Of a DNA stretch of 64,000 nucleotides, positions 3,382 to 59,274 are shown piece by piece. The notes beneath the pieces were generated by a model. That model had not been told where the DNA came from. It worked only from the letters and a program-made list of their open reading frames with translations, and ran no database searches. Position 1 is the stretch's first letter. The number at the start of each line of letters is the position of its first letter. The position numbers and the translations under genes were made by a program. Origin of the DNA: a virus (Duplodnaviria; Caudoviricetes); IMG/VR virus record IMGVR_UViG_3300027759_003166; one strand, given 5' to 3'.

Positions 3382-4236
3382 TTATTTAGATTCTGTCAAC
3401 CTAAGTAAAGTATTTTTCTTAACTGCCGCATCCAGAACATTCATTACTATCTCATGTTTTTCTGCGTACTTGAGTAATGCGCTGGTATCTTTAGGGAAAC
3501 ACGCTCCACCGAATCCATAATTACCATCTGGCCCAGGTACTTGCATATGGCTAGATCCAATTCGTCGATCCTGTGTAATCATGTACGCAACTTGATTAAA
3601 ATCTACACCGGTCTTTGAACATAGTGTTTCGAGTTCATTCATAAACACAACCTTAGTAGCCATAAATGTATTGATCGCATATTTGGCCATTGCGGCTTCG
3701 GCAATTGTACAATGCTGTATTCTTTTTAAGTTCTTTTGGGATAATTGTATAATACGGTCTGCTTCTCTTATGTAAGCAGGGACTCTTCCACCGATAAAAA
3801 CAAACTCACCATTTGCGTAATCTTTAACGGCATGGGCCGCAGTTAAAAATTCTGGAGCATGGATTAGATTTGGATGCTGTATATTCTGTGCTTCATACCA
3901 ATCAGGTGGTGCTGTACATTTACTAATGATAACACCTGTATATCCACGTCTATGTAACTCATTTAGTATCCCTCCTAATATGCTTGTATCACAGGTACCG
4001 TCGTCGTCTTGAGGAGTTGGTACGCATACAAATATACCACTACACTTCATTAAATCTTGATATGTAGCGTTATGTCCTTTAGCAGGATCCATAACAAAGA
4101 GTTCTGCGTCCATTTCTAAAGCATTCGCAATGGCACCGCCTACAAAGCCAAAGCCTATAATTCCAATTTTTTCCATACGATTATTTTTAAAGATTATTTT
4201 AGCACCGCCCATGGTGCCTGGCATGTTCAAAGTCAT
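3382..4236 (-). CDS. UDP-glucose/GDP-mannose dehydrogenase family protein (probable start 4176)
   Basis: IGIIGFGFVG Rossmann motif, CVPTP, APEFL, FGGACFPKD. Confidence 0.9.
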   Translation of the reverse strand: MTLNMPGTMGGAKIIFKNNRMEKIGIIGFGFVGGAIANALEMDAELFVMDPAKGHNATYQDLMKCSGIFVCVPTPQDDDGTCDTSILGGILNELHRRGYTGVIISKCTAPPDWYEAQNIQHPNLIHAPEFLTAAHAVKDYANGEFVFIGGRVPAYIREADRIIQLSQKNLKRIQHCTIAEAAMAKYAINTFMATKVVFMNELETLCSKTGVDFNQVAYMITQDRRIGSSHMQVPGPDGNYGFGGACFPKDTSALLKYAEKHEIVMNVLDAAVKKNTLLRLTESK

Positions 4237-6436: not shown

Positions 6437-6685
6437 TTAGCTGTAGTCTCTGACTGTGCCACCATGACGAACACTTTTCATCTTCTTACCTTTTAGACGT
6501 ACCCCCGATCCATCAACGCCTTGCTTGCCTGTACCTGCTGTATGTTCGCTGTCATGTGCTAATAAACCATGGCTTACACATTGAGCATATCTAACATTGC
6601 TTAGACGTGAATGCCCAACGGAGCATTGACTGGCTGTAGGAGTAGCTAGATCTTTTTCGGTAAGTAGTTCTATAATTCGCATCAA
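6437..6685 (-). CDS. Hypothetical protein with an MRIIELLTE leader, possible internal virion protein
   Basis: 82-aa ORF with an I/L-x-E N-terminal signature. Confidence 0.55.
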   Translation of the reverse strand: MMRIIELLTEKDLATPTASQCSVGHSRLSNVRYAQCVSHGLLAHDSEHTAGTGKQGVDGSGVRLKGKKMKSVRHGGTVRDYS

Positions 6686-6692
6686 GTATTTA

Positions 6693-7019
6693 TTATTTGA
6701 AAAGGATTAATCCCATAATCAATGTTTGAGCAGCAAATCCTAAGCAAATTGTAGCAATATACAGGAAATTACGTTCAATTAAGCTCTTAAAGAACAAAGT
6801 AAGCAATCCACTCCAGACAAATACCATAAGATCTACAGGTGGTAGCTTGTCACTTTGCGCCATTAGTACAGCTAAAAGCGTGGGAATACTGGCAAAATGT
6901 AGCAGAATAATAGTTACCCAACCCAATGTGTGGGCACTCATATGGCCGAGATGATCTCGGAAAAATACATAAATTTTATTAGGTACACTTCCAACCATCT
7001 CTAAAAATTCTAATTTCAT
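6693..7019 (-). CDS. Hypothetical membrane protein
   Basis: Three hydrophobic segments. Confidence 0.65.
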   Translation of the reverse strand: MKLEFLEMVGSVPNKIYVFFRDHLGHMSAHTLGWVTIILLHFASIPTLLAVLMAQSDKLPPVDLMVFVWSGLLTLFFKSLIERNFLYIATICLGFAAQTLIMGLILFK

Positions 7020-7028
7020 TTTGCTTCC

Positions 7029-8420: not shown

Positions 8421-9011
8421 TTACATGGTAGGGCCATTGCCATTTTTAAATCCAATGGTTCCACCTTCTTCAATAATACGTTTCTTTACATCTTCAAATA
8501 ATATAGGCGCAAAGTCAGTTTGCTCCACGCATACACAATGATATCGGACATCAATGACAGGTGTGGCAAATTCTCCAGAAGCTGGTCCAGGTTTCATTAC
8601 TCTGTTGGCATGAGTATGCCCGTGTACATTTACACCAAACCTACCTAACGATTCTGTGTGTAATGGGATATGACTAAAAATCATTCCTTCAACTACGTGA
8701 TAGGCACGTAATTCACGGAAGTACTTACGATACTCATCATCTGGAAAGATATCGTGATTGCCGCGGATTAACACCTTGTCGCCGTTTAATCTAGACATAG
8801 TGGGTAAGTGCTTTCGGTTCATAACCACATCGCCTAAGTGATATACTTTATCTTTGGGACCAACACGGTCATTCCAGGCCTTAATCATGGCTTCGTCCAT
8901 TTCTTCAGGACTATCCCAGGGCCTTAATTTGGTCACACCGTCATTCCGTGTGAAATGACATACGCCCTTGTGTCCAAAGTGAGTGTCACTAACTAAAAAT
9001 ACTGCTGGCAT
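8421..9011 (-). CDS. Calcineurin-like metallophosphoesterase
   Basis: SDTHFGH, YHLGD, RGNHD, SHIP and HGHTH motifs. Confidence 0.9.
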   Translation of the reverse strand: MPAVFLVSDTHFGHKGVCHFTRNDGVTKLRPWDSPEEMDEAMIKAWNDRVGPKDKVYHLGDVVMNRKHLPTMSRLNGDKVLIRGNHDIFPDDEYRKYFRELRAYHVVEGMIFSHIPLHTESLGRFGVNVHGHTHANRVMKPGPASGEFATPVIDVRYHCVCVEQTDFAPILFEDVKKRIIEEGGTIGFKNGNGPTM

Positions 9012-9275: not shown

Positions 9276-9512
9276 TCAAGTCTTTGAGCTCATTTTAAGC
9301 AGGTAAAGAGTTACTTCTGGACCATCAACAATTACTACATCGTTGGGATATTTGTTAACACCGTTATACCATATACTGTGCTCGCCTACTTCCCAAACTC
9401 TAACCATTATCTTGTTGAGTTTCTTTACAGTACCAAATTCCAAACTATTACGGTATGGATAACAGACAGCATCGCCAACTTTGATAATGCGTCCTAATTT
9501 ATCTTTATGCAT
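9276..9512 (-). CDS. Hypothetical protein
   Basis: DKLGRIIKVGDAV start typical of small phage SH3-like proteins. Confidence 0.6.
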   Translation of the reverse strand: MHKDKLGRIIKVGDAVCYPYRNSLEFGTVKKLNKIMVRVWEVGEHSIWYNGVNKYPNDVVIVDGPEVTLYLLKMSSKT

Positions 9513-9966
9513 ACCAAATTTCCTTGAAGCCTTCTTCCAAAGTTGGTTCTTCCCAATTACTAATCATATCGTCGATAACATTCTTTGGAATATGTTTTCC
9601 AGGCCGACTACTTAGCCGTACATCTAATTCATCACGTGGGGGTGTTCGAAATACTACAGCAATAGTATAGTACTCAGGCAACATTCGAATCTTCTTTAAA
9701 CGTGAATATATTGTAGTGCTGGTTTGATCCCAAACAATATCTCGCCCTGCTTCACAAGCATGAGCAACATCACCTACCATATACTCCACGCATTTGGGCA
9801 TAACTTCATTAAAGACTTCGCTATAAGTTTTACCCATATTCTTAGCATATTCTTCAACGTAGCGATCTGTGCTGATGTATGCAGCTTCTTGCAACCATTC
9901 TTGATCGCAATGCCACGAACTTTTACCAGAACATGGCACTCCAACTAACATATACAATTTTGGCAT
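9505..9966 (-). CDS. P-loop kinase (AAA_33 / polynucleotide-kinase-like)
   Basis: LVGVPCSGKSS Walker A, ISTD, VWDQT, EEPTLEEGF. Confidence 0.85.
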   Translation of the reverse strand: MPKLYMLVGVPCSGKSSWHCDQEWLQEAAYISTDRYVEEYAKNMGKTYSEVFNEVMPKCVEYMVGDVAHACEAGRDIVWDQTSTTIYSRLKKIRMLPEYYTIAVVFRTPPRDELDVRLSSRPGKHIPKNVIDDMISNWEEPTLEEGFKEIWYA

Positions 9967-10697: not shown

Positions 10698-10726
10698 ATT
10701 ATACAGTCAAAAAAAAACCCTGTCAA
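10698..10726 (-). promoter_or_regulatory. Sigma70 promoter
   Basis: TTGACA-17 bp-TATAAT. Confidence 0.85.
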
Positions 10727-10741
10727 CCTAAGTTGGCAGGG
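10709..10741 (-). terminator. Intrinsic terminator of the vWA gene, overlapping the next promoter
   Basis: CCCUGCCAAC/GUUGACAGGG stem, 4-nt loop, 9 U. Confidence 0.8.
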
Positions 10742-10765
10742 TTCAAAGTCATATTACTATAACTA

Positions 10766-12187
10766 TTACAGATCGTAGCGCGGAACTAGTACAGTCTTAC
10801 GCATGATGCCTTCTGGAGTGAATTGTTCAACATCCGCACCTAGCAAGCTAGCCATGATTGCTGGACTAAATCCACTTACAAGAGCGGCACCGCTCTTATC
10901 TGCCGCAACTGGTACGTTACCAGAACTGTTTAGGTTCCAGAAAACAACCTGTGGACAAGTGTATCCGGCTGCTTCAAACTTGCGTTCGATCATTTCCATC
11001 GCACTGTCATCGTGGCGAACACAGGCGTTAAATTGCATGTCGCTCAAGATCAAAACCATTGCTGGCATATCACTTTGAGGAGCATTGCCCTTAACTGCTA
11101 CACTTAGAATCTTTTCAAATGCTGCATGTAGATTTGTGCTCATACCCCAGTCGCTCTTGACCATTTGATTCATCTTTTGGACAATGTCGCCCCGAAGAGT
11201 CATCAATTGTGGCTTGTCACTGAATGTCAAGAAAGTGTCCTTGAACACACCCTTGTTCTTATCAGCCAAGTACAAGCCAAGGCTAACAGAAATATCCATA
11301 CAGGTAACACTACCCTTACCGCCCGCCGCACAACTCATAGAGCCGCTTACGTCTACTAGTGGTAGGATGCTAGCATCTCCAACGTAGTTTGGCAAGGCGT
11401 TCCATTGTGCAGTGATGTGATCCAATTCTGTCTTAGACAAAGTCGGACGCATGTATGCGTAAGCATTAACCAGTCCCTTCAACACATCGTGTGGGAAAAT
11501 AGCGTTAGCATTAACCTTCACACCTGCTTCGCCCTTGACCAGTGCAGCCACGTACTCAGCAAACTTAGGAGTGTGACGTCCAAAAGCCTTCTTGTAGTTA
11601 CGTGATGCCACGCTAGGTACGTGGTTGAAGTTGATGTTGTCCCAGTCATTGGCACACATTTGTGTTTCAACAACCTTGGTCAAAGCCACAAGACTCTTAC
11701 GGTAGAACTTTGGGCTCATACCGAAGAACTCACGGACTTCTGCTGCGATCTTGCCCTTACGTGGAGTCCACTTGGCAGCAAGGCCGTTACGAGCACGTAG
11801 AGCATCGCCCAACATGGTGTAAGCAGCAGCCTTCAATACAGGAGTAGTGAAGACAAAGATGTCATCCCAACGACCTACTTCAGGTACCTTCTTCAGCAAA
11901 GCCAAAGCGGCATCTGGGTCAGTCTTTTCTAGATGTACCAGAATTGAACGGAACAATTCCCGTTCGCCCGCTCCACCACGGACATCACGTGCCCATTGTG
12001 CGATACGTAGAGCCAAGTCGAAGTTTTCAACATAGGCCGCAGTAAATGCGGGTACAATGTTCTTACCACGGCTTGCGCCGATGTTGTAGAACAGATCAAC
12101 ACACTTGTTAGCGGTTGATTCACAAGCCTTCATACCATTAGCGGTACGGGCTTCTTGGTTAGCGATTGCGGTTACGAATGCGTTCAT
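10766..12187 (-). CDS. TROVE/Ro60-like protein with a C-terminal vWA domain (DUF2828 type)
   Basis: ARDVRGGAGER, VGRWDD, AAKWTPR; MIDAS DVSGSM; LILSDMQF; VVFWNL. Confidence 0.85.
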   Translation of the reverse strand: MNAFVTAIANQEARTANGMKACESTANKCVDLFYNIGASRGKNIVPAFTAAYVENFDLALRIAQWARDVRGGAGERELFRSILVHLEKTDPDAALALLKKVPEVGRWDDIFVFTTPVLKAAAYTMLGDALRARNGLAAKWTPRKGKIAAEVREFFGMSPKFYRKSLVALTKVVETQMCANDWDNINFNHVPSVASRNYKKAFGRHTPKFAEYVAALVKGEAGVKVNANAIFPHDVLKGLVNAYAYMRPTLSKTELDHITAQWNALPNYVGDASILPLVDVSGSMSCAAGGKGSVTCMDISVSLGLYLADKNKGVFKDTFLTFSDKPQLMTLRGDIVQKMNQMVKSDWGMSTNLHAAFEKILSVAVKGNAPQSDMPAMVLILSDMQFNACVRHDDSAMEMIERKFEAAGYTCPQVVFWNLNSSGNVPVAADKSGAALVSGFSPAIMASLLGADVEQFTPEGIMRKTVLVPRYDL

Positions 12188-12201
12188 TTTAATTTACCTT
12201 T

Positions 12202-12257
12202 CAGAATGTATTTTATTTTCGATATAATTGAAATATAAGATTGCTGTTAACATTCTA
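12202..12257 (-). ncRNA. Family-A structured RNA A1 (in the vWA 5' UTR)
   Basis: UAGAAUGU/ACAUUCUG stem, UAACAGCAA, AUAU-UUCAAUU-AUAU T-loop hairpin. Confidence 0.65.
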
Positions 12258-12265
12258 TTATTCAA

Positions 12266-12370
12266 CAGGATAGTTGTGCCACTTTTTACTGATGTAGCCA
12301 ACAGTTTGATAGGCTGTGAAGTTATCTCTGCCCATCAGTTCATGTAATATGAGTTGCTGAACCTATCCTA
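12266..12370 (-). ncRNA. Family-A structured RNA A2
   Basis: UAGGAUAG/CUAUCCUG stem, UUCAGCAA, internal ACUGAUG/CAUCAGU helix. Confidence 0.65.
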
Positions 12371-12403
12371 AAACTTACTAACAAGTTTCCTTGCTATGTA
12401 TAT

Positions 12404-12432
12404 ATTGTATAACAAAACTCAAGTCTTGTCAA
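12404..12432 (-). promoter_or_regulatory. Sigma70 promoter for the vWA gene
   Basis: TTGACA-17 bp-TACAAT. Confidence 0.8.
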
Positions 12433-12447
12433 TACAATTTGGAAAAG

Positions 12448-12526
12448 CAGGATACCATTATTTTTGGAATTGAACCAAATATCGCATGAAGCGAATTAAC
12501 CAAAGGTTATTGCTGTTAGTATCCTA
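12448..12526 (-). ncRNA. Family-A structured RNA A3 (cloverleaf-like interior)
   Basis: UAGGAUAC/GUAUCCUG stem, UAACAGCAA, three hairpins including UUUGG-UUCAAUU-CCAAA. Confidence 0.7.
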
Positions 12527-12530
12527 AAAT

Positions 12531-12609
12531 TGGATGCGGAGGATGGATTCGAACCACCGATCTGAAGCTTATGAGACTTCCGGGGACGACCAGACTCCCC
12601 CACTCCGCT
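12531..12609 (-). tRNA. trnM: tRNA-Met(CAU), initiator-like
   Basis: Loop CUCAUAA; 1:72 mismatch; R11:Y24; encoded CCA. Confidence 0.8.
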
Positions 12610-12665
12610 GTATTTGGGACACACTACTTTGCCTATTTTACGCCGTGTGCCATGGCGAGATCTTT

Positions 12666-12926
12666 TTATCCAGTACGGTGGATCAAATGATAACCAAACT
12701 GAGTTTGTACAGGTTGACTAATGGCGCCAATTGGAGTTGCCAATGTAGCATCTTCAAATGGTTTAACCATCATGCCTGGTCCAAAATCTCCAAGGTCTCC
12801 GCCGTTGGCTTTACTAGGACATGAACTATATTTCTGTGCCAATTGACCAAAATTTGAAGTATCGGCTTCGGCCAAAATGGCATGTGCTTGTTCTACTGAA
12901 TTTACTAAAATATGACTTGCTTTCAT
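12666..12926 (-). CDS. ppiC: Parvulin peptidyl-prolyl isomerase (start refined to 12926)
   Basis: MKASHILV...FGQLAQKYSSCPSKANGGDLG.F.PGMMVKPFE...TQFGYHLI. Confidence 0.9.
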   Translation of the reverse strand: MKASHILVNSVEQAHAILAEADTSNFGQLAQKYSSCPSKANGGDLGDFGPGMMVKPFEDATLATPIGAISQPVQTQFGYHLIHRTG

Positions 12927-12946
12927 TTTTTCCTCTTTATAAAAAT

Positions 12947-13020
12947 TGGTCTCGGTAGCAGGAATCGAACCTACGCTCCTGCGTCCCAAACGCAGAGTGA
13001 TACCATTTCACCATACCGAG
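12947..13020 (-). tRNA. trnP: tRNA-Pro(UGG)
   Basis: CUGCG-UUUGGGA-CGCAG anticodon arm, CCA. Confidence 0.95.
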
Positions 13021-13025
13021 AATAA

Positions 13026-13107
13026 ACTGGTGGGCAGGACTTGAACCTGCTTCGTCTTGCGACTACCGAGTATGTTTCAACTCCGCCTTTCCCCTTTCAG
13101 GCCAGTT
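13026..13107 (-). ncRNA. Degenerate tRNA-like element
   Basis: Perfect T arm GCAGG-UUCAAGU-CCUGC, GUC-GCAA-GAC variable arm, 8-nt loop, AACUGG/CCAGUU closing stem; no normal acceptor end. Confidence 0.5.
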
Positions 13108-13348
13108 AATCTTTTTTCTTCCTTAACTTCATTCCAACAAACGTGCCACAAAATGCGCCAAGACATGCTGGAATAAGCAGCATATGATCACTAGTATAGT
13201 TGATTACTGCAATACTTGCAATGAAAAAAACTACCACTGACCATACGCTTGATTTAAGTACTTCATCATTTTGTACTGCTCGTAGATAATATGTATAAAA
13301 CACATCAGTGAAAAACAGTGCGAAAAATGTTGTTATGTATTCAATCAT
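13106..13348 (-). CDS. Small membrane protein
   Basis: Three hydrophobic segments and a basic tail. Confidence 0.7.
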   Translation of the reverse strand: MIEYITTFFALFFTDVFYTYYLRAVQNDEVLKSSVWSVVVFFIASIAVINYTSDHMLLIPACLGAFCGTFVGMKLRKKKD

Positions 13349-13355
13349 AAATGTT

Positions 13356-13431
13356 TGGTAGGACGTGACGGGTTCGAACCGCCGACAGCCTGAATGTAAA
13401 TCAGGAACTCTACCAACTGAGTTAACGTCCT
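13356..13431 (-). tRNA. trnV: tRNA-Val(UAC)
   Basis: CCUGA-UUUACAU-UCAGG, CCA. Confidence 0.95.
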
Positions 13432-13472
13432 ATATTTGGTCTAACTAAAGTTTTATTTAATAAATATTTTCC

Positions 13473-13751
13473 ATGCTACAAAAAAAAGAACGCATACCAT
13501 TAAATCTACGCCGTAGAGTCATTGAACGCGATGGCTTCTATTGTGTCTATTGCGATGATGATCTCCGCGATGGTGAAATACACATGGATCATGTTATTCC
13601 AGAATCTCGTGGAGGCGAAACGTCATACAATAATCTTCAGGTAACTTGTAGAAAATGTAACCTGGCTAAAGGTACATTGTCCGAAGATGAATTTACTCGA
13701 AAGCTCAGAACACGAGCACTAAACATATTGAATAGAATTGGAGCGGGATAG
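13473..13751 (+). CDS. HNH endonuclease, antisense within the tRNA array
   Basis: CVYC...HMDHVIPESRGG....NLQVTCRKCNLAKG; ATAAATA box upstream. Confidence 0.9.
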   Translation: MLQKKERIPLNLRRRVIERDGFYCVYCDDDLRDGEIHMDHVIPESRGGETSYNNLQVTCRKCNLAKGTLSEDEFTRKLRTRALNILNRIGAG

Positions 13752-13812
13752 GAGAATCAAACTCCTGACCGAGGATTGGAAATCCGCTATTTTATCATTA
13801 AACTAATCCCGC
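13739..13812 (-). tRNA. trnG: tRNA-Gly(UCC)
   Basis: Loop UUUCCAA, GCGGGAU acceptor, CCA; T loop UUUGAUU. Confidence 0.85.
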
Positions 13813-13818
13813 ACAAAT

Positions 13819-13962
13819 TGGTGGAGAACATTTTTGAGGTATCCCCTATGAAGCAGATCACTGCTCACCTGTTACATTGCTGTCGTGTACTATTACCTGC
13901 CCTAAGGATTAGGTACCTACCTTAGCGACTCATACCGGCGAACGTAACCTCGCCTCTGTTCC
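13819..13962 (-). ncRNA. 144-nt multi-hairpin RNA ending in CCACCA and containing ACAGCAA
   Basis: GGAACA/UGUUCU and GAGG/CCUC closing helices plus four internal hairpins; begins directly after the tRNA-Thr CCA. Confidence 0.6.
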
Positions 13963-14045
13963 TGGTGCTGGAAGTGAGACTCGAACTCACGGAGGTTTCC
14001 CGACGGCTTACAAAACCGTTGCAATTGCCACTATGCGACTCCAGC
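13963..14045 (-). tRNA. trnT: tRNA-Thr(UGU) with a long variable arm
   Basis: ACGGU-UUUGUAA-GCCGU; 12-nt variable region CGGGAAACCUCC; G1-C72, C2-G71, A73. Confidence 0.8.
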
Positions 14046-14053
14046 TTTATTTA

Positions 14054-14230
14054 CTATCCACCTTGTTCACTATCTCGAACTTGTGATTGTTGTTCTTCAA
14101 CTAACCTAAATGCTTCATCTTCATTTTGAGCATCCTCAACTTCACGCGGATCAGGTTTGCGGAAGATAGCATCATAGTTTGAGCTAAACTTATTCAAGTC
14201 AGTTGGTCGTTGTCTTGAACCTTTGCTCAT
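14054..14230 (-). CDS. Small hypothetical protein (58 aa)
   Basis: Manual translation MSKGSRQRPTDLNKFSSNYDAIFRK...; GGAAGG SD. Confidence 0.65.
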   Translation of the reverse strand: MSKGSRQRPTDLNKFSSNYDAIFRKPDPREVEDAQNEDEAFRLVEEQQSQVRDSEQGG

Positions 14231-14231
14231 A

Positions 14232-14456
14232 TCAACGTACCTTCCTTAGGTAATCACGTCCAATATGTCCTGCTTCAATTTCTTGTAGAGCTGTGACAAT
14301 ATGGCTGTTAGGTGAAATGACCATTTTTCTATTACCACGGCCTTGCTTCAACTCACGTGCTCGAACAGCAGCGATTAAAACTAGATCAAATCTGTTGCCA
14401 ACATTGGCCACACATTTTTCTGTATCCACGGAATTAACAAAATCTGGAGTTTTCAT
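14232..14456 (-). CDS. rpoZ: RNA polymerase omega subunit homolog
   Basis: VGNRFDLVLIAAVRARELKQG...IVTALQEIEAG matches the omega signature. Confidence 0.9.
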   Translation of the reverse strand: MKTPDFVNSVDTEKCVANVGNRFDLVLIAAVRARELKQGRGNRKMVISPNSHIVTALQEIEAGHIGRDYLRKVR

Positions 14457-14629
14457 TATTCACCTCGGTTATTACGTTCTTTGGAACTTTTGACAATGGT
14501 ATTACCCATTACTTGAGATTCGATCATCATGTGACGAAATCCGTCTCGTTGATCTTGATCTTTAAAAGGCATCAAGGCCAGGAAACGTTTAGCCTGTTTA
14601 CTCAAACGAAATGCTGCGTTAGTTTTCAT
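14456..14629 (-). CDS. Small basic hypothetical protein (57 aa)
   Basis: Manual translation MKTNAAFRLSKQAKRFLALMPFKDQDQRDGFRHMMIESQV...; AAGGA SD. Confidence 0.6.
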   Translation of the reverse strand: MKTNAAFRLSKQAKRFLALMPFKDQDQRDGFRHMMIESQVMGNTIVKSSKERNNRGE

Positions 14630-14652
14630 ACTTTCCTTTTATTAAAAAACTT

Positions 14653-14736
14653 TGGTGCCCCAGGTCGGACTCGAACCGACACGCCTTTCGACACGAGCTT
14701 CTAAGGCTCGCATGGCTACCATTACATCACCGGGGC
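14653..14736 (-). tRNA. trnL: tRNA-Leu(UAG)
   Basis: CGAGC-CUUAGAA-GCUCG, long variable arm. Confidence 0.95.
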
Positions 14737-14779
14737 ATACTCTTACTATACAATCTATTTTACAGACTGTCAACTATTA

Positions 14780-14854
14780 TGGTGCGACGTGTTGGGAACG
14801 ATCCAACGGCCAAGAAATTATGAGTTTCCTGCTCTACCACTGAGCTAACGTCGC
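14780..14854 (-). tRNA. tRNA(CAU), elongator Met or Ile2
   Basis: Loop CUCAUAA; atypical T loop AUCGUUC. Confidence 0.8.
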
Positions 14855-14863
14855 ACTATTCTT

Positions 14864-14938
14864 TGGTCCGGCGTGCAGGAATCGAACCCACGTTTAGGGA
14901 GTAGAAATCCCCTGTATTTTCCACTATACGAACGCCAG
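14864..14938 (-). tRNA. trnR: tRNA-Arg(UCU)
   Basis: Loop UUUCUAC, CCA. Confidence 0.9.
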
Positions 14939-14945
14939 GAAATCG

Positions 14946-15033
14946 CATATAGAAACACACTGATGTCCTGTAGCTTTAACAGGCCCTAGACTTTTTCAAG
15001 TCTCGCAGTCACACTTCAATGTATTTTTATATA
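14946..15033 (-). ncRNA. Family-B long-stem RNA B1
   Basis: UAUAUAAAAAUACAUUGA/UCAGUGUGUUUCUAUAUG 18-bp stem; two internal hairpins. Confidence 0.65.
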
Positions 15034-15034
15034 C

Positions 15035-15155
15035 CATATTAAAACATACTCCCAACAAGTGTCTTACGCTTGTTGTACCGTGTGCTATGCACATTCTCCG
15101 TATCAAAGGACTCCCTCGGGTTAGGGCAACATAGACGAAAGTATGTTTTAATATG
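15035..15155 (-). ncRNA. Family-B long-stem RNA B2
   Basis: Perfect 16-bp CAUAUUAAAACAUACU/AGUAUGUUUUAAUAUG stem; three internal hairpins; starts at the tRNA-Leu CCA. Confidence 0.65.
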
Positions 15156-15239
15156 GTGCGACTGGCCGGACTCGAACCGGCACGCCCAAGAGCGAGGGAT
15201 TTTAAATCCCTTGCGGCTACCAAATTACGCCACAGTCGC
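15154..15239 (-). tRNA. trnL: tRNA-Leu(UAA)
   Basis: AGGGA-UUUAAAA-UCCCU, long variable arm. Confidence 0.95.
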
Positions 15240-15292
15240 AAAATACTTTTTAACTTTTAAAGAACAGTGTTAATTGCTTAACGTATGCATAT

Positions 15293-15321
15293 AGTATAAC
15301 ATCATTTACTCTATGTGTCAA
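15293..15321 (-). promoter_or_regulatory. Internal sigma70 promoter followed by a boxA-like sequence
   Basis: TTGACA-17 bp-TATACT; downstream TGTTCTTTAAAA at about 15256-15267. Confidence 0.7.
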
Positions 15322-15322
15322 G

Positions 15323-15396
15323 TGGTTCTCCTAACAAGAATCGAACTTGTAATTGCACTTTACCGAAGTGCTGGTATGCCATTTACCTATAGGAGA
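15323..15396 (-). tRNA. trnT: tRNA-Thr(GGU), atypical C33
   Basis: GCACU-UCGGUAA-AGUGC, C2-G71, CCA. Confidence 0.7.
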
Positions 15397-15400
15397 GTAT

Positions 15401-15475
15401 TGGCGGGCCTTGAGAGGATCGAACTCCCACCCTCGGTTTCGAAGACCGAGATGATATCCATTTCACCAAAGGCCC
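15401..15475 (-). tRNA. trnR: tRNA-Arg(UCG)
   Basis: UCGGU-CUUCGAA-ACCGA. Confidence 0.9.
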
Positions 15476-15551
15476 TGGTGGTAGAGGTGGGACTCGAACC
15501 CACGATCTTTTCCGTATGAAGGAACTGCATTAGCCGCTATGCTACTCTACC
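15476..15551 (-). tRNA. tRNA(CAU), probably Ile2 (lysidine) or Met
   Basis: Loop UUCAUAC, CCA. Confidence 0.8.
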
Positions 15552-15554
15552 ATA

Positions 15555-16217
15555 TTATTTTCTAATACAAATTAGATCACTTTCACCAAAGGGATGCGGA
15601 TCTCTTGTTTTAAGAAATTCTGTTTCAAACCCTTGTTGATGGATCCATGATTCAAGATCACTTTTTGGAGCGTGACCCTTATAGTAAGGTTTTAATGCAG
15701 CTTCTGTATGCATTAGTTTAACATCATCGATGAATTTCCCCATACCTTGCAATGCTTTTAATTCATTACCTTGTACATCCATCCAAACAGCATCTACCTT
15801 ATCGACACCAATTTCTGTTAAAACATCATCTATACGTCTTGCTCTAATGCCGGATAATTTTTGAAAGGTACATGGTCTGTGTCCATTCTGCCATCCTGCA
15901 TCTAAGAAATCCTCTGCTGGTTCTAAAATAGAGGATGCACCAACATTTTCATTAACTATCCAAAAATCTACAATATCTTCTTTATCATTACAGGCATATT
16001 CATATACCTCAATGTTAGGATAATTTTTTCCTGCTGCTACACAAATAGGAAACTGATTAGGATTTGGTTCAAATGCAATTATTCTAGTATTAGGAAATGC
16101 CTCAGACATCTGTACACTTTCTTCTAGGTCTCTGCTACCTACATCTAAAATAACTTGTGGGCCTTGATTTCCATAAATTTCTTTTAGTTGTTCTATAAAA
16201 TCACCTGCTACTGCCAT
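15555..16217 (-). CDS. FkbM family methyltransferase
   Basis: ILDVGS, AFEPNP, VWMDVQGNELKALQG. Confidence 0.85.
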   Translation of the reverse strand: MAVAGDFIEQLKEIYGNQGPQVILDVGSRDLEESVQMSEAFPNTRIIAFEPNPNQFPICVAAGKNYPNIEVYEYACNDKEDIVDFWIVNENVGASSILEPAEDFLDAGWQNGHRPCTFQKLSGIRARRIDDVLTEIGVDKVDAVWMDVQGNELKALQGMGKFIDDVKLMHTEAALKPYYKGHAPKSDLESWIHQQGFETEFLKTRDPHPFGESDLICIRK

Positions 16218-16289
16218 AATATTTCTCCATTAAAAGTTTATTATACTGGATATTATTTAATAGTCAACCGTTATCATAGACTGGGTAAT

Positions 16290-16365
16290 TGGTGCAACCT
16301 CCAGGGATCGAACCTGGGACGCCAAACTCTTCAGGCTTGCGCTCTACCAACTGAGCTAAGGTTGC
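16290..16365 (-). tRNA. trnF: tRNA-Phe(GAA)
   Basis: Loop CUGAAGA, CCA. Confidence 0.95.
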
Positions 16366-16386
16366 AAATTATGTTAGAGAAACAAT

Positions 16387-17007
16387 CTATGCTCTTATAA
16401 GTTTAAAAAATTGATTATCACCGCTATTATGACATCCATCAAAAATAAAATGAGTATTCCAATCACCGATGCGATGACTTACATGTCTATACATTGGGTG
16501 CATATCATAATTGTCTCTATAAGGACAAAGATTTTCTCTATTAATTGCTTCAATAAATTGAAATAAGTATTTTTTAGGAAACGCATATAATGCATCTCCT
16601 ACAAACCGATCATTGGTCCAAAATGGTTCAATTTCTTTAAAAAGGAAATTAAATTTATTATAGTCTATATTCCAAGTGTTAACTGGAGTATTGAAATGAA
16701 TATCATATCTAGTAGCAATAATAAAATCTAAATCTTCGTAGATCAATTCTTCCATACTACGCTTATAGGTAGTACGAATCTGACTTCCTTGATATGGGAT
16801 AATAACAGCCTTAGATGCATTGTAATGCTCTATCATTCCTGTTAGTTCAGGATGTGGATATGTTGTGAGATAAACCCCTGCATTAGGAATAACATTAATA
16901 AGTTTTTCTTTTATGTTATCTTTTGCCAGCTTCCAATCTCGATCAGCTTTGGCTGTTCCTACTGCCTGTCCCCACGCGGCACCTGTTAATACTATTCCTA
17001 TTTTCAT
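16387..17007 (-). CDS. Hypothetical glycosyltransferase-associated protein (MKI.....G...R.D family)
   Basis: Similar to 26457, 27843 and 34551; YDxII..RxD motif. Confidence 0.6.
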   Translation of the reverse strand: MKIGIVLTGAAWGQAVGTAKADRDWKLAKDNIKEKLINVIPNAGVYLTTYPHPELTGMIEHYNASKAVIIPYQGSQIRTTYKRSMEELIYEDLDFIIATRYDIHFNTPVNTWNIDYNKFNFLFKEIEPFWTNDRFVGDALYAFPKKYLFQFIEAINRENLCPYRDNYDMHPMYRHVSHRIGDWNTHFIFDGCHNSGDNQFFKLIRA

Positions 17008-17019
17008 TTATGTTTAATC

Positions 17020-17095
17020 TGGAGCGGGTGATCGGAGTCGAACCGACGACAATCACGTTGGCAACGTGGCGCTCTACCAGCTGAGCTACACCCGC
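17020..17095 (-). tRNA. trnG: tRNA-Gly(GCC)
   Basis: Loop UUGCCAA. Confidence 0.95.
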
Positions 17096-17118
17096 ATAAT
17101 TTTATTTACTATCTTAGT

Positions 17119-17196
17119 TGGAGTGCCGGGTCGGATTTGAACCGACGGTTTGACAGTTTTGCAGACTGTTGCGTTGGGCCTCTCCGCCACCGACAC
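17119..17196 (-). tRNA. trnC: tRNA-Cys(GCA)
   Basis: ACAGU-CUGCAAA-ACUGU, U73. Confidence 0.95.
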
Positions 17197-17203
17197 ACTT
17201 ATT

Positions 17204-17278
17204 TGGCGGGCCGCCTAGGACTCGAACCCAGACTTAACAGATTTGGAATCTGCGGTGCAGCCATTACACTAACGACCC
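17204..17278 (-). tRNA. trnW: tRNA-Trp(CCA)
   Basis: Loop UUCCAAA, G73. Confidence 0.9.
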
Positions 17279-17461
17279 TTTTTTCTTTTGAGGAAGTCCA
17301 CCTTTGGACCACTCTGTATTTTCGTATATTGCTAACTCATCTTTTGATATTCGTTTAGCAATAATACCATTGTTTATTAATATTGTTCCTATATTAGCCT
17401 CTGCTACTAGGGATACATATATTTGTTTTATGCAGGTTCTACAAGAAAATTCTTGTACCAT
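17264..17461 (-). CDS. Hypothetical protein
   Basis: 65-aa ORF with a CxxC motif; overlaps neighbours slightly. Confidence 0.4.
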   Translation of the reverse strand: MVQEFSCRTCIKQIYVSLVAEANIGTILINNGIIAKRISKDELAIYENTEWSKGGLPQKKKGSLV

Positions 17462-18087
17462 TCTGCTTCTGTTAACATTTCAACAATTTTATAATTATTA
17501 TTGTTTATCCAACTGTCAAACTCATTGAGATTTGAATTACTCACTTCTACAAACAATAAAGGTCTACATCTTGCTATAGTATCAGCAAGTCCAATGAGTA
17601 CATCCATTTCCATGCCTTCTACATCAATTTTAATCAAATCAATTTTTTTATTATAAAATAAGGCATCGCCTGGTACTTGAGGAATACCCGATATCATCCC
17701 TTGATCTTTTAAACTTGTTGCACCTAAATTATCGTTAAACATTTCTCGAATGCCTGAAAACCCAAATCTAGAACCCATTGCTAGACCTAGAAAATCTATG
17801 TTAACGGATTTGCAATAATTCAATGCTATATTTTGTAATAGTAATTTATAGCTCTGTGCTATTGGCTCAATGACAATTATTTCTTTTGGATTCAGATACC
17901 AATCAAAAAATATAGTGTGATTACCCACATTTGCCCCAACATCTACAATTGTAAGATCTGGAGGAATATATTTTATTAGTTTATCCAATTCATCTCGTTC
18001 ATAAAATTCACATTTAAGATGATGACGTTGAATAGTATCATTACCATTATCTACCATAAATTTTAATTTTCTCATATATGCTTTCAT
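17428..18087 (-). CDS. FkbM family methyltransferase
   Basis: VDVGANVGNHT, IEP, IKIDVEGMEMDVLIG. Confidence 0.9.
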   Translation of the reverse strand: MKAYMRKLKFMVDNGNDTIQRHHLKCEFYERDELDKLIKYIPPDLTIVDVGANVGNHTIFFDWYLNPKEIIVIEPIAQSYKLLLQNIALNYCKSVNIDFLGLAMGSRFGFSGIREMFNDNLGATSLKDQGMISGIPQVPGDALFYNKKIDLIKIDVEGMEMDVLIGLADTIARCRPLLFVEVSNSNLNEFDSWINNNNYKIVEMLTEAEWYKNFLVEPA

Positions 18088-18092
18088 TTATT

Positions 18093-18182
18093 TGGCGGAA
18101 CGACTGAGACTCGAACTCAGAAACCCTCTTTCGAGAGTCGATGGATTAGCAATCCACTCCAATACCATTATGGGACCGTTCC
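18093..18182 (-). tRNA. trnS: tRNA-Ser(GCU)
   Basis: Loop UUGCUAA, long variable arm, G73. Confidence 0.95.
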
Positions 18183-18190
18183 TTAATTCT

Positions 18191-18303
18191 TGGTGCAACC
18201 GGTAGGTCTCGAACCTACAAAGGCGTTGTCTAGGACTTTGCCCCATCACCGGCTTTTCTTTTCAGAAGAAGCGGCAGGTCTGCCATATTCCACTCACGGT
18301 CGC
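18191..18303 (-). ncRNA. 113-nt tRNA-like RNA without a canonical anticodon loop
   Basis: GCGACCG/CGGUUGC-ACCA acceptor, T arm GUAGG-UUCGAGA-CCUAC, Leu-type D region, extended GAAA-capped hairpin and an extra hairpin. Confidence 0.7.
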
Positions 18304-18318
18304 AAGTATATTATATAC

Positions 18319-19056
18319 TTATTCGCCCGCTGTGTCAACTGATTTTACGTGAGCAAGTTCTTTGTTGATAAAGTCCCAAGCTCTTTGCAGTAACCTCTTG
18401 TAGTGAGGATTATCCGTTTTTTCTGGATATATGTCTGCTATATGTTTAACTTCAAATGCTCTATTTAGATATGCTGTCATTTTTGTTCTAAATGCTGCTG
18501 GATCTAAATGAGACAATTTAGGTATCACTGGCGAGATAAAATGTAATGCTTCAATAAAACGTGCATTAATTTCTGCCGGTTGTGCTCTATAAGCGGTATC
18601 TGGATCTTCCCGATCTGCTGGATTTCTTGCTGTACTATAACGTGTACTTTGATTAGCCCTATCCGACGATTTAAAATCGTCCATGGCGTGTCTTAGTTCG
18701 TGTGCAATAATAGTACGCATACGGTTAGAGGACAAGTAATCAGCATTTAAAGATATTGCCTTTTCTGCAGGATCCCATTCACCTAAGTGTGAGTCTGCTC
18801 CTGTTGCTCGTCCATTTAATCTACGTGCTAGATCTACAATAGCTTCATCTGAGGATATTGCCAAACGTATTCTATCCACGGCAGGAATTGGAGTGTCAAA
18901 TAGATCTCCAATGCGTCCAATATGTATTACGCCTGTTTCATCGTAGTCTAACTCTGTATCAGCGTATTGCTGTAGATAATCGTAGATAGTATCAGCAAGG
19001 CTCATAACAGCACGATCTTCTTCAGCAGTTTCAACTAGTAGTTCATGTATTCGCAT
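18319..19056 (-). CDS. Hypothetical zincin-like protein with an MRIHELLVE leader
   Basis: IIAHELRHAMD (HEXXH) and Y...PAEINAR. Confidence 0.65.
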   Translation of the reverse strand: MRIHELLVETAEEDRAVMSLADTIYDYLQQYADTELDYDETGVIHIGRIGDLFDTPIPAVDRIRLAISSDEAIVDLARRLNGRATGADSHLGEWDPAEKAISLNADYLSSNRMRTIIAHELRHAMDDFKSSDRANQSTRYSTARNPADREDPDTAYRAQPAEINARFIEALHFISPVIPKLSHLDPAAFRTKMTAYLNRAFEVKHIADIYPEKTDNPHYKRLLQRAWDFINKELAHVKSVDTAGE

Positions 19057-19068
19057 CTACTTATTTAG

Positions 19069-19156
19069 TGGAGGAAGATGTGAGATTCGAACTCACGGTC
19101 CCTTTCGAGACGACAGTTTTCAAGACTGTTGGTTTAAACCACTCACCCAATCTTCC
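19069..19156 (-). tRNA. trnS: tRNA-Ser(UGA)
   Basis: ACAGU-CUUGAAA-ACUGU, long variable arm. Confidence 0.95.
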
Positions 19157-19164
19157 TTATGTGT

Positions 19165-19239
19165 TGGTGCGTCCGGATGGAATCGAACCACCATTACTAA
19201 GTTCGTAGCCTAGAGTATTCTCCATTATACTACGGACGC
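19165..19239 (-). tRNA. trnR: tRNA-Arg(ACG)
   Basis: Loop CUACGAA. Confidence 0.9.
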
Positions 19240-19246
19240 TTTAATT

Positions 19247-19320
19247 TGGTCCTCTCGACAAGAATCGAACTTGTAATGACCGGTTATCAGCCGATTGTTA
19301 TACCATTTAACTACAAGAGG
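19247..19320 (-). tRNA. trnI: tRNA-Ile(GAU)
   Basis: Loop CUGAUAA. Confidence 0.9.
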
Positions 19321-19326
19321 ATTTCG

Positions 19327-19405
19327 TGGTTGATTTCATCCTGAGCCACCCACTCTATTATACTATGTATAACGTGGGGCTTTGCTACACGACCAGGATC
19401 TGCTC
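19327..19405 (-). ncRNA. 79-nt long-hairpin RNA candidate ending in CCA
   Basis: AUCCUG/CAGGAU, CCCAC/GUGGG and GUUAUAC/GUAUAAU nested helices between tRNA-His and tRNA-Ile. Confidence 0.4.
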
Positions 19406-19482
19406 TGGGGTAACCAATGGGGAACGATCCCATTCTATCACTTTCACAGAGTGAGGTGCTAAACCTTTACACTATGGTCACC
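19406..19482 (-). tRNA. trnH: tRNA-His(GUG)
   Basis: Loop CUGUGAA, G-1:C73; atypical T loop AUCGUUC. Confidence 0.9.
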
Positions 19483-19576
19483 ATATAAAAATACATTCCA
19501 AAAACTTCCGATTAGTTATGTCGGTCATAACGTTTATACAGGATAACTAATTCCTGCAGGAATGTATTTTTATATA
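19482..19576 (-). ncRNA. Family-B long-stem RNA B3
   Basis: UAUAUAAAAAUACAUUCC/GGAAUGUAUUUUUAUAUG stem; possible internal pseudoknot (UUAGUUAU/AUAACUAA). Confidence 0.65.
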
Positions 19577-19580
19577 ATAC

Positions 19581-19659
19581 CATATAGAAACACATTGCTT
19601 CTGTCTCCAAGGACTTCTGATGGACTAGGTCACAGCCTAGGACAATGTGTTTTTATATG
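19581..19659 (-). ncRNA. Family-B long-stem RNA B4
   Basis: CAUAUAAAAACACAUUG/CAAUGUGUUUCUAUAUG; starts at the tRNA-Lys CCA. Confidence 0.65.
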
Positions 19660-19732
19660 GTAGGGGCACCCGGACTCGAACCGGGATAGATCGGGTAAAA
19701 GCCGACTATTCTAGCCTTTGAATTATACCCCC
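19658..19732 (-). tRNA. trnK: tRNA-Lys(UUU)
   Basis: Loop CUUUUAC. Confidence 0.9.
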
Positions 19733-19735
19733 ATA

Positions 19736-19810
19736 TGGTCCACAGCCCCAGAATCGAACTGGGCTCTCTCGGCTTAAGAGGCCGGACTTCGCCAGCAAAG
19801 TTTGCTGTGG
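19736..19810 (-). tRNA. trnK: tRNA-Lys(CUU), atypical core
   Basis: Loop CUCUUAA; A at position 8; compressed D/anticodon junction. Confidence 0.7.
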
Positions 19811-19872
19811 ATGGATTCGTAAATATTTTCTTTTACGTGCCATCCAGGACCATACGGGGGTCTAGGATGACA

Positions 19873-19896
19873 CTATCGTTTCGCTGAACGTTTCAT
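19873..19896 (-). CDS. 7-aa mini-ORF MKRSAKR
   Basis: AAGGAGA SD upstream; followed by a UGUCAUCC/GGAUGGCA hairpin. Confidence 0.4.
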   Translation of the reverse strand: MKRSAKR

Positions 19897-19908
19897 GTCG
19901 TTCTCCTT

Positions 19909-19971
19909 TTAAAGTTTTCTCATAATAAAATACAGAGCACAAAATATAATTACTATCAATAGTAAGACCAT
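19909..19971 (-). CDS. 20-aa hydrophobic peptide MVLLLIVIIFCALYFIMRKL
   Basis: AAGGAG SD; single TM segment plus basic tail. Confidence 0.5.
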   Translation of the reverse strand: MVLLLIVIIFCALYFIMRKL

Positions 19972-19991
19972 AATATGCTCCTTGGTGTGGT

Positions 19992-20066
19992 TGGCAGGGA
20001 CTGAAGGTAACGCTCCTTCTCACCCAGTTTCAAAGACTGGTATCTGCTCTTATCGATTTAATCCCT
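19992..20066 (-). tRNA. trnQ: tRNA-Gln(UUG), atypical
   Basis: CCAGU-CUUUGAA-ACUGG, G73; T loop AGCGUUA, A8. Confidence 0.75.
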
Positions 20067-20162
20067 ATGTTATCTAACTCTTGTTTTGTTAATACAGATA
20101 TTTTTAATTCCGGATGTTGAGTTATTTCCCCTGCCAAACAACACAATGCCCCAACAATAAAA

Positions 20163-20218
20163 CAGGATGCTTATTTTTCAATTAAAAGTTGAATTTAAAA
20201 TTTGCTGTTCGCATCCTA
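20163..20218 (-). ncRNA. Family-A structured RNA A4
   Basis: UAGGAUGC/GCAUCCUG, GAACAGCAA, UUAAA-UUCAACU-UUUAA. Confidence 0.7.
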
Positions 20219-20222
20219 AAAG

Positions 20223-20297
20223 TGGCTCCCTCGGGAAGGATCGAACTTCCGACCAATTGGTTAACAGCCAACTGCTCTACCTCTGAGCTACAAGGGA
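20223..20297 (-). tRNA. trnN: tRNA-Asn(GUU)
   Basis: Loop CUGUUAA, G73. Confidence 0.95.
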
Positions 20298-20305
20298 ATA
20301 ATAAA

Positions 20306-20516
20306 TTTGTAAGTAGTTCCGCCCATATTATCGGAACCATTCACCTTATTATACAAGGCCGGCAAGGTCTCGGTACGTTACTTGGGAGTCCTCCAAATGA
20401 TACGCCAATTGTATACTAGTCTTCCGACCAGCCGGGCATCGAACCCGCATCCTTTTACTGTTTCAGTTGTTCGAACGAACCTAGACAGCGTGACTTCTCT
20501 TGCTAACACTTACAAA
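20306..20516 (-). ncRNA. YrlA-like Y RNA candidate (211 nt) with a permuted tRNA-mimic domain
   Basis: UUUGUAAGU/ACUUACAAA terminal stem; T arm, then loop-closed acceptor stem, then D arm at 20398-20448. Confidence 0.65.
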
Positions 20517-20519
20517 ACT

Positions 20520-20594
20520 TGGAGTCGCATACGGGTTTCGATCCCGTCTAGTCACCTTGAAAGGGTGATGACCTCGCCAGAAGTCTAATGCGAC
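20520..20594 (-). tRNA. trnE: tRNA-Glu(UUC)
   Basis: UCACC-CUUUCAA-GGUGA; T loop AUCGAAA. Confidence 0.85.
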
Positions 20595-20603
20595 ATAATA
20601 AAA

Positions 20604-20663
20604 CAGGATAGCATTTTTTTTCATTAACGTTGAAAGTTTTTTGAGTTTGCTGTTGCTATCCTA
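20604..20663 (-). ncRNA. Family-A structured RNA A5
   Basis: UAGGAUAGC/GCUAUCCUG, AACAGCAA, AAC-UUUCAAC-GUU hairpin. Confidence 0.7.
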
Positions 20664-20668
20664 AAACT

Positions 20669-20715
20669 TGGTGGATAACAGATGCCGACCGTAAGGTATA
20701 AGCACCCGCTTCTCC
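20669..20715 (-). ncRNA. 47-nt minihelix-like RNA with an ACCA end
   Basis: GGAGAA/UUAUCC-ACCA plus GGGUGC/GCAUCU helix; no D or T arm. Confidence 0.45.
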
Positions 20716-20721
20716 ATAATT

Positions 20722-58989: not shown

Positions 58990-59013
58990 ATAAAGAAACC
59001 CGCCGAAGCGGGT
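58990..59013 (-). terminator. Terminator after the tmRNA gene
   Basis: ACCCGC-UUCG-GCGGGU followed by UUCUUU. Confidence 0.85.
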
Positions 59014-59014
59014 C

Positions 59015-59270: not shown

Positions 59271-59274
59271 TTAT

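Follow-up and report, generated by a model that had tools for sequence, protein, structure and literature searches.

The closest described systems to the one reported here are the Ro60/Rsr proteins with their Y RNAs, especially YrlA (RF02553; PMC4201824), and the Ro60 protein of Thermus phage phiLo with Yrl1 and Yrl2 (PMC12135203), both of which consist of a ring-plus-vWA protein beside one or more small RNAs. Canonical Ro60/Rsr is known to bind a GNCGAA or CGAA motif (PMC4201824, PMC12135203). Among phages, gp130 of the Felix O1-type phage Bas63 is a Ro60-like protein encoded directly upstream of a tRNA array that counters the Ppl defense, and the authors guessed that some of the "tRNA genes" are Y RNAs (10.1101/2024.10.10.617714). 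In the Listeria phage CKA15, a DUF2828 homolog is abundant in virion preparations, Y RNAs have been suggested, and the three regions with the highest transcription are all found in the 2 kb upstream of the homolog (PMC12282133). Here, we analyzed a 64,000-nt stretch of DNA (hereafter the window) from an uncultured freshwater phage (IMG/VR record IMGVR_UViG_3300027759_003166), in which a gene for a Ro60-like protein is accompanied by five elements of one RNA architecture, named A1 to A5. By analogy with the systems above, these elements and a probable sixth member are likely to be Y-RNA-like small-RNA partners of the phage protein. Since widely different phages combine this kind of protein with this kind of RNA, the whole would probably be a viral form of the Ro60/Y-RNA particle that has not been described before, with the binding of RNA by the protein inferred.

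The five elements lie on the minus strand at positions 12202-12257 (A1), 12266-12370 (A2), 12448-12526 (A3), 20163-20218 (A4), and 20604-20663 (A5). Each begins with a U followed by AG(G/A)AU and two to four further bases, which form the 5' half of a closing helix, and then three bases and the box CAGCAA; a variable interior, a stretch rich in A, the bases complementary to the 5' half and a final G, which gives a 3' CUG, complete the element. The box reads ACAGCAA in four of the five elements and UCAGCAA in A2. The pattern TAGRAT-N3-WW-CAGCAA matches the window exactly five times, always on the minus strand, and for a pattern of comparable information content 0.01 matches are expected in shuffles. 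The closing helix, which reaches 9 bp in A5, is part of the minimum-energy fold of all five elements, with z-scores between -2.6 and -4.3 (-3.7 for A2, -4.2 for A3, and -4.3 for A5). Inside it, A2 (105 nt) carries a multi-hairpin interior, and the three hairpins of A3 give a cloverleaf-like arrangement. The preliminary description of this DNA had claimed five elements with a common architecture and a cloverleaf-like interior in A3, and both claims hold at these positions.

Conservation of the elements was evaluated in two samples of IMG/VR loci, the first comprising 80 loci whose proteins are 78-92% identical to the Ro60-like protein of the window and the second 75 additional loci in which the identity reaches down to 63%. 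Homologs found through a word index were close relatives only, and an exhaustive search was used for diversity. A simple pattern occurred 240 times, in all cases on the strand of the gene. A rule-based scan (AG plus 5 nt, a spacer of 1-5 nt, CAGCAA, and the complement plus G within 320 nt) returned 282 matches on the strand of the gene and 8 on the opposite one, and 235 against 5 in the 75 further loci, 70 of which had at least one match. Overall, the shared architecture was found beside homologs, on the gene strand, in at least 150 metagenomic loci. The scan yielded 392 unique elements, whose helices came in 58 different sequences and in which CAGCAA is invariant by construction; the distance from helix to box was 3 nt in 376 of the 392, a U preceded the AG in 83%, and a U followed the CUG in most of them. 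A relaxed scan that accepted AGCAA with any 7-bp helix was dropped as too noisy (61 and 37 matches on the two strands).

Covariation confirmed that the helix is maintained at the RNA level by compensatory changes. In an alignment of 49 short relatives, 94% of the helix cells were paired and three of the seven pairs changed on both sides, a result that none of 500 shuffles reached. A covariance model, R1, was applied to the loci and to whole phage records; it scored A1 at 62.9 bits, A4 at 61.8, A5 at 57 and A3 at 31, and on 0.96 Mb it gave 128 matches at E<=0.01, every one on the gene strand. The alignment of these matches, which come from diverse phages, had 96.9% of cells paired and double changes at six of seven pairs, compared with 23-50% in slid controls; the figures overstate independence because the alignment was fitted to the model and many of its rows are homologous, although their direction is clear. 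The second helix pair was G-C in 110 of 110 rows. Taken together, these data support a real, covarying RNA family, and the closing stem with compensatory changes, the fixed (A/U)CAGCAA and the A-rich stretch that had been proposed from the five copies are thus borne out by folds and covariation.

The gene that these RNAs accompany (10766-12187, minus strand) encodes 473 amino acids, with a helical domain (DUF2828) and after it a vWA domain (DUF7788) that has a complete MIDAS, or metal-ion-dependent adhesion site. A Pfam search matched DUF7788 (4.6e-47) and DUF2828 (1.8e-27) and did not match the TROVE model; phmmer against the PDB gave no match, and a profile of 101 homologs reached Ro60 chains at E 0.03-0.07 only. 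The AlphaFold (AF2) model calculated on the homolog alignment (predicted local distance difference test 93.6, predicted template modeling score 0.92) had as its best 13 PDB structure matches Ro60, Rsr, or a Thermus-phage Ro60, at E values of about 1e-7 and TM scores of 0.5-0.66 over the full length. Matches among Swiss-Prot models were Ro60 from five species, Tetrahymena p80, and TEP1. The MIDAS residues (DxSxS...T...D; D279, S281, S283, T351, and D383) were invariant across the 101 homolog sequences. The modeled product, in which a helical ring precedes the vWA domain as in solved Ro60 structures, is thus a structural member of the Ro60 superfamily and yet a separate sequence family, because it matches the Ro60 fold but neither TROVE nor, at the sequence level, Ro60 itself. 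Of the TROVE/vWA protein initially proposed, the Ro60 fold and the vWA domain with its MIDAS therefore stand, while the Pfam TROVE assignment does not.

Homologs of this protein are common, as the DUF2828 family comprises 6122 clusters at 50% identity and 710 phage records, which include Felix O1, KVP40, P100-like Listeria phages, Campylobacter, Staphylococcus, Enterococcus and Bacillus phages, and mycobacteriophages, whose homologs are annotated as "Ro-like RNA binding protein." Between the window protein and those of the Felix O1 group, identity is about 37-38%. Bas63 gp130 is likewise a homolog and occupies the same position next to a tRNA array; its study gave no RNA partner, motif, or mechanism.

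Searching phages with the DNA of the window retrieved nothing beyond tRNA and short gene matches. The RNA architecture itself, in contrast, could be followed far beyond close relatives. With R1 and the scan, we found three tandem copies directly upstream of the gene in Listeria phage LMTA-57, one copy about 100 nt upstream of the gene and the rest in the array in cyanophage BUCT-ZZ01, six copies in the tRNA array around the gene in Ralstonia phage RSP15, and four copies among the first tRNAs past the gene in Felix O1. Two long copies in the array of KVP40 were missed by R1 and recovered by the rule-based scan, and R1 detected three tandem copies immediately after the gene in mycobacteriophage Loadrie (L086, 9471-9728), all of these lying on the gene strand. 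Searches of the whole records of these six phages, and of Aeromonas phage Ahp1 and Cronobacter phage GAP32, gave matches in the tRNA or gene region only. PF11443 or a homolog is present in all eight; the status of Ahp1 and GAP32 was not known in advance, and both proved to have the RNAs as well. Conversely, the whole records of T4, T5, phAPEC8, SPO1, phiKZ, S-PM2, and rV5 had neither, the sole match in these controls being one in phiKZ at E 0.84. The RNAs were therefore present in nine of nine phage records with the gene and in none of seven without it, which is the outcome of the co-occurrence test suggested in the preliminary description. In GAP32 (NC_019401), about eight matches lie at 305-312 kb and the DUF2828 gene lies at 106 kb, some 200 kb away on the same strand; the pairing of protein and RNA is therefore not always local, and the remoteness of the RNAs from the gene in both GAP32 and Ahp1 points to their acting in trans.

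What the elements have in common is the combination of helix, CAGCAA, A-rich strand and CUG, which we refer to as the handle, and not a T-loop, and the interiors enclosed by this handle are interchangeable cargoes, namely anticodon-arm mimics, T-arm or tRNA-like bodies, and a YrlA-like body. Hairpins resembling an anticodon arm (a stem of at least 5 bp with a 7-nt loop pyrimidine-U-NNN-purine-N) were found in 104 of 393 unique elements, compared with 11 in shuffles, mostly in the class of up to 70 nt; hairpins resembling a T arm were found in 51 of the 393, compared with 1.2 in shuffles, mostly in the class of 71-140 nt. The commonest anticodon-like loops were CU-NNN-AA, where NNN was UCU, UUU, UGU, GCA, UGA, GUU, or GUA. 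The cargo of A4 is such a mimic, with a 5-bp stem and the Lys-UUU-like loop CUUUUAA. In relatives of A4 the stem varies (UUCAA/UUGAA, UUGAA/UUCAA, UUUGA/UCAAA, and UUAGA/UCUAA) around a constant CUUUUAA, and this covariation supports the anticodon arm over an alternative UUCAACU loop. It had been claimed that four of the five elements have a hairpin with a T-loop-like UUCAA. The UUCAA string does occur in four, but a convincing T-arm-like hairpin exists only in A3 (loop UUCAAUU), and the UUCAA of A1 is not conserved among its relatives; with A4 in favor of an anticodon-like loop, the T-loop was rejected as a common feature.

A sixth, divergent element occupies a 211-nt spacer at 20306-20516 on the minus strand, where a 9-bp terminal helix is followed by GU and UAGCAA and encloses a tRNA-like interior of the YrlA type, in which a T arm and a D arm flank a stem-loop resembling an acceptor, as judged by eye and by folding. 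In an alignment of 15 homologs, the box and helix were conserved, the box being CAGCAA in seven of the 15, and an insertion in the helix was matched on both strands. This element probably belongs to the handle family, although its membership is less certain because it lacks the AG...CUG signature. A further departure from that signature is found in Loadrie, in which the first helix pair is flipped (UG...CA-G in place of AG...CU-G), an additional compensatory change and the reason why the strict scan missed these elements. The interior of the middle Loadrie element likewise comprises a T arm, an acceptor-like stem-loop, and a D arm, and the Rfam YrlA model scores this element at 21 bits over the tRNA-like core only. 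The YrlA-type internal domain is absent from A1, A2, A4, and A5, A3 being cloverleaf-like. The three tandem handle RNAs of Loadrie are followed by a GC-rich terminator.

The placement of the elements relative to transcription signals and tRNAs may indicate how they are produced. A sigma-70-like promoter, TTGACA-17-TACAAT (12404-12432, minus strand; 11 of 12 positions matching, by consensus only), sits between A3 and A2, so that A2 and A1 would belong to the leader of the Ro60-like mRNA and A3 would lie upstream of the promoter. A1 ends 14 nt ahead of the ATG, abutting an AAAGG ribosome-binding site, and in nearly all related loci a copy stands at this constant distance from the start codon with an almost invariant helix, which makes A1 a candidate operator. 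The tRNA array, with 28 tRNA genes between 12531 and 20971, is on the same strand as the gene and has A3, A4, A5, and the sixth member embedded in it: A3 begins 4 nt past the 3' end of tRNA-Met, A4 begins 4 nt past tRNA-Asn, and A5 terminates 9 nt ahead of tRNA-Glu. Release of the elements as small RNAs is plausible because they abut tRNA ends. The initial placement of two copies in the 5' untranslated region, one upstream of the promoter and two as tRNA spacers is thus upheld.

Comparison with known RNAs indicated that the motif, whose status the preliminary description had not been able to tell, is not catalogued in Rfam 15. At gathering thresholds no family matched the elements, and under a relaxed threshold (E<=10) only weak matches to RF01414 were obtained. 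The YrlA model (RF02553; gathering threshold 69 bits) did not match the five elements, and none of the RNAs reaches that threshold. RF01414, the Class I RNA family of Dictyostelium, scored A1, A3, A4, and A5 at 17.9-20.1 bits over the full model length, against a gathering threshold of 41.5; the elements of the cyanophage, the Listeria phage and Loadrie scored 21-24 bits, and nothing else in those loci did. Since the gathering score of both families was missed, filing the elements under YrlA or Class I was rejected. Our literature searches gave no description of the handle RNAs, and the Bas63 and CKA15 studies do not define such a family. As far as we found, the handle RNAs constitute a widespread, apparently unpublished family linked to the part of the Ro60 superfamily that the DUF2828 proteins form.

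The resemblance to Class I RNAs deserves consideration as a lead, not as membership. In these RNAs, an invariant G opens the terminal helix on its 5' side, positions U3, C6, C9, A10, and A11 of an 11-nt box do not vary, and the 3' end is CUGU; they have been reported as unique to Dictyostelia, and their known binder is the RNA recognition motif (RRM) protein Rnp1A (PMC7919456). Handle RNAs similarly have a helix starting with an invariant G, ACAGCAA located 3-4 nt past the 5' strand so that C6, C9, A10, and A11 are retained, a variable interior, an A-rich 3' strand, a 3' CUG(U), and a short class of about 55-60 nt. The position of U3 is occupied by U or A, there is a register shift of one base, and the scores are low (18-24 bits compared with 41.5). 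Moreover, Class I RNAs are eukaryotic and have a Dictyostelium upstream sequence element (DUSE) promoter, whereas handle RNAs are phage-borne and are predicted to be expressed from sigma-70-like promoters or within the tRNA-array transcript.

With Y RNAs the likeness is closer in overall design, as Y RNAs and handle RNAs alike have a terminal helix, a short conserved single-stranded box by the 5' strand, and a variable module able to mimic tRNA. Handle RNAs differ in being many per genome and in their swappable cargoes, which include bare anticodon arms. RNA-repair genes are also found near both Ro60/Rsr loci and the window locus. Two genes downstream of the Ro60-like gene lies a P-loop kinase gene (AAA_33, polynucleotide-kinase-like; 9505-9966, minus strand; 1.4e-13), and a calcineurin-like metallophosphoesterase is encoded at 8421-9011 (minus strand; 6e-5, near the Pfam cut-off), which makes an RNA end-healing context possible. 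RtcB or phosphoesterases occur near the homologs in the Listeria phage and RSP15, and such neighbors fit an RNA-damage or repair setting. Phage tRNA arrays have been discussed as a means of countering defenses that cleave tRNA (PARIS, retron-PtuAB, and PrrC), and handle RNAs are also array-encoded, with cargoes that copy the parts of tRNA recognized by anticodon nucleases; unlike the array tRNAs, they are not chargeable, the protein handle replaces the acceptor end, and they might act as decoys.

The most likely mechanism is a Ro60/Y-RNA-like particle whose RNAs display tRNA parts. In it, the handle would be the protein-binding site, and the enzymes maturing the adjacent tRNAs would cut the RNAs out of the tRNA-array transcript and out of the mRNA leader. 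The protein ring would then display the variable cargo to tRNA-acting enzymes, either anticodon or other defense nucleases of the host or repair enzymes, possibly the kinase and phosphoesterase encoded next door, and the outcome may be the decoying or tethering of those enzymes. With A1 placed against the ribosome-binding site, the protein may additionally repress its own translation. The operator role of A1 would rest on its constant position against the Shine-Dalgarno sequence within this phage clade; in other lineages, the RNAs follow the gene or are remote from it.

Several points speak against handle RNAs being ligands of the Ro60-like protein or limit what can be concluded from them. The box is CAGCAA located three bases after the helix, and not GNCGAA or CGAA within the 5' strand, so that the analogy with Y RNAs is architectural and not sequence-based. 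In GAP32 and Ahp1 the linkage between RNA and gene is genome-wide only. Many of the counted elements are homologous copies from related phages, which means that the large counts overstate independence, and the 128-match alignment shares this weakness through its fitting to R1 itself. Lake metatranscriptome contigs include the gene and its leader, one of them an exact 329-nt contig at 12177-12505, but they prove little, as they give no RNA ends, strand or true transcription and may reflect DNA carry-over. Finally, the decoy role and the autoregulation are put forward as possibilities.

If the handle is not read by the Ro60-like protein, it may be recognized by another phage protein or by some RNA-binding protein conserved among hosts, in which case the DUF2828 link would reflect a shared pathway only. 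The binding of the look-alike Class I RNA to the RRM protein Rnp1A (PMC7919456) and the distance of the RNAs from the gene in GAP32 and Ahp1 would agree with this explanation, which we regard as unlikely given that presence and absence match perfectly over 16 phage records, that the RNAs directly adjoin the gene in at least five lineages, and that the Ro60 fold is a dedicated small-RNA binder. Alternatively, the elements could serve as processing or stability signals of the tRNA-array transcript, guiding RNase E, RNase III, or RNase P or protecting precursors. The contact of A3, A4, A5, and the sixth member with tRNA ends is what such signals would show, as is the location of the Felix O1, RSP15, KVP40, and GAP32 elements inside tRNA arrays. 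Nevertheless, T4, T5, phAPEC8, S-PM2, rV5, SPO1, and phiKZ have tRNA genes and no handle, the copies of the Listeria phage, cyanophage and mycobacteriophage stand beside the gene and not between tRNAs, and the same box recurs in phages of Actinobacteria, Firmicutes, Proteobacteria, and cyanobacteria despite their differing RNases, all of which renders a role limited to processing or stability quite unlikely.

Two further explanations are less probable still. The gene-proximal copies could be purely cis-acting leader structures, attenuators or translational operators, and the array copies unrelated look-alikes, as the fixed distance of A1 to the ribosome-binding site and its almost invariant helix would allow; yet a single covariance model detects leader and array copies alike, and all copies lie after the gene in Felix O1 and Loadrie and far away from it in GAP32, so we consider this very improbable. 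A DNA-level repeat, such as a miniature mobile element, a homing-endonuclease target or a recombination site, is brought to mind by a multi-copy family and by HNH endonuclease genes within the array. It is contradicted by the strict strand bias, by compensatory changes that preserve an RNA helix including G-U-compatible patterns, by a box that is asymmetric and single-stranded, by unrelated interiors, and by conservation across phage families, and seems to us extremely improbable. Overall, an RNA partnership with the Ro60-like protein is the reading that best accommodates the data.

A broader version of this partnership, which we put forward as doubtful, joins two proposals: that the protein and its RNAs form a programmable display particle trapping or redirecting tRNA-directed defense nucleases, its cargo comprising anticodon arms like those of Lys, Arg, Thr, Asn, Tyr, Cys, and Ser together with T arms and whole tRNA-like bodies, and that Class I RNAs, which in Dictyostelium have the same handle, serve a protein from this superfamily in the way of Y RNAs. 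If the Class I link were true, one type of ribonucleoprotein would span phages, bacteria, and amoebae. The handle RNAs also provide a first lead from outside on Class I RNAs, for which 20 years have brought no relatives. DUF2828 proteins are common in phages, including model and therapeutic ones, and one homolog has been reported to counter bacterial defense; a defined RNA handle renders the mechanism directly testable. Handle RNAs also explain unannotated, highly transcribed spacers in phage tRNA arrays, and a natural scaffold for displaying tRNA fragments represents a possible tool.

With regard to the transcribed regions of CKA15, the equivalent stretch of the related phage LMTA-57 (L085) contains, besides the three handle RNAs, a drum RNA and a ROOL RNA that scores close to threshold. 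The ROOL-like RNA (6470-7021; 88.5 bits, gathering threshold 99.1) lies between the tRNA array and the DUF2828 gene and is probably the roughly 490-nt "most transcribed region" of CKA15 (PMC12282133); the drum RNA (3983-4081; 50.2 bits, above gathering) was found in the same stretch between array and gene.

Downstream of the Ro60-like gene of the window, a hairpin followed by a T-run can be read after the stop codon from the sequence alone; a terminator scan of the window did not call it because of its long loop. A perfect TTGACA-17-TATAAT promoter for the next genes (10698-10750, minus strand) overlaps the hairpin and T-run, and terminator and next promoter therefore share sequence. Within the tRNA array, protein genes were identified at 15555-16217, 17428-18087, 12666-12989 (minus strand), and 13473-13751 (plus strand), encoding two FkbM-type methyltransferases (one with a weak TRM5/TYW2 match), a parvulin-type peptidyl-prolyl isomerase and an HNH endonuclease. 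The tRNA-Met beside A3 (12531-12609, minus strand) is 79 nt long, has its anticodon at position 37 and, at 46.2 bits, scores lower with the Rfam tRNA model than any other tRNA of the array; it may be atypical or non-canonical. Between tRNA-Asp and A5, a 58-nt spacer (20664-20721, minus strand) that was called by neither ARAGORN nor Rfam has a CCACCA end and a possible acceptor-like minihelix. Outside the array, a transfer-messenger RNA (tmRNA) is encoded on the same strand as the tRNAs at 58991-59314 (minus strand; beta_tmRNA 149.9 bits, permuted tmRNA 126 bits), and cyanophage BUCT-ZZ01 likewise carries a tmRNA (L083, 3737-4137).

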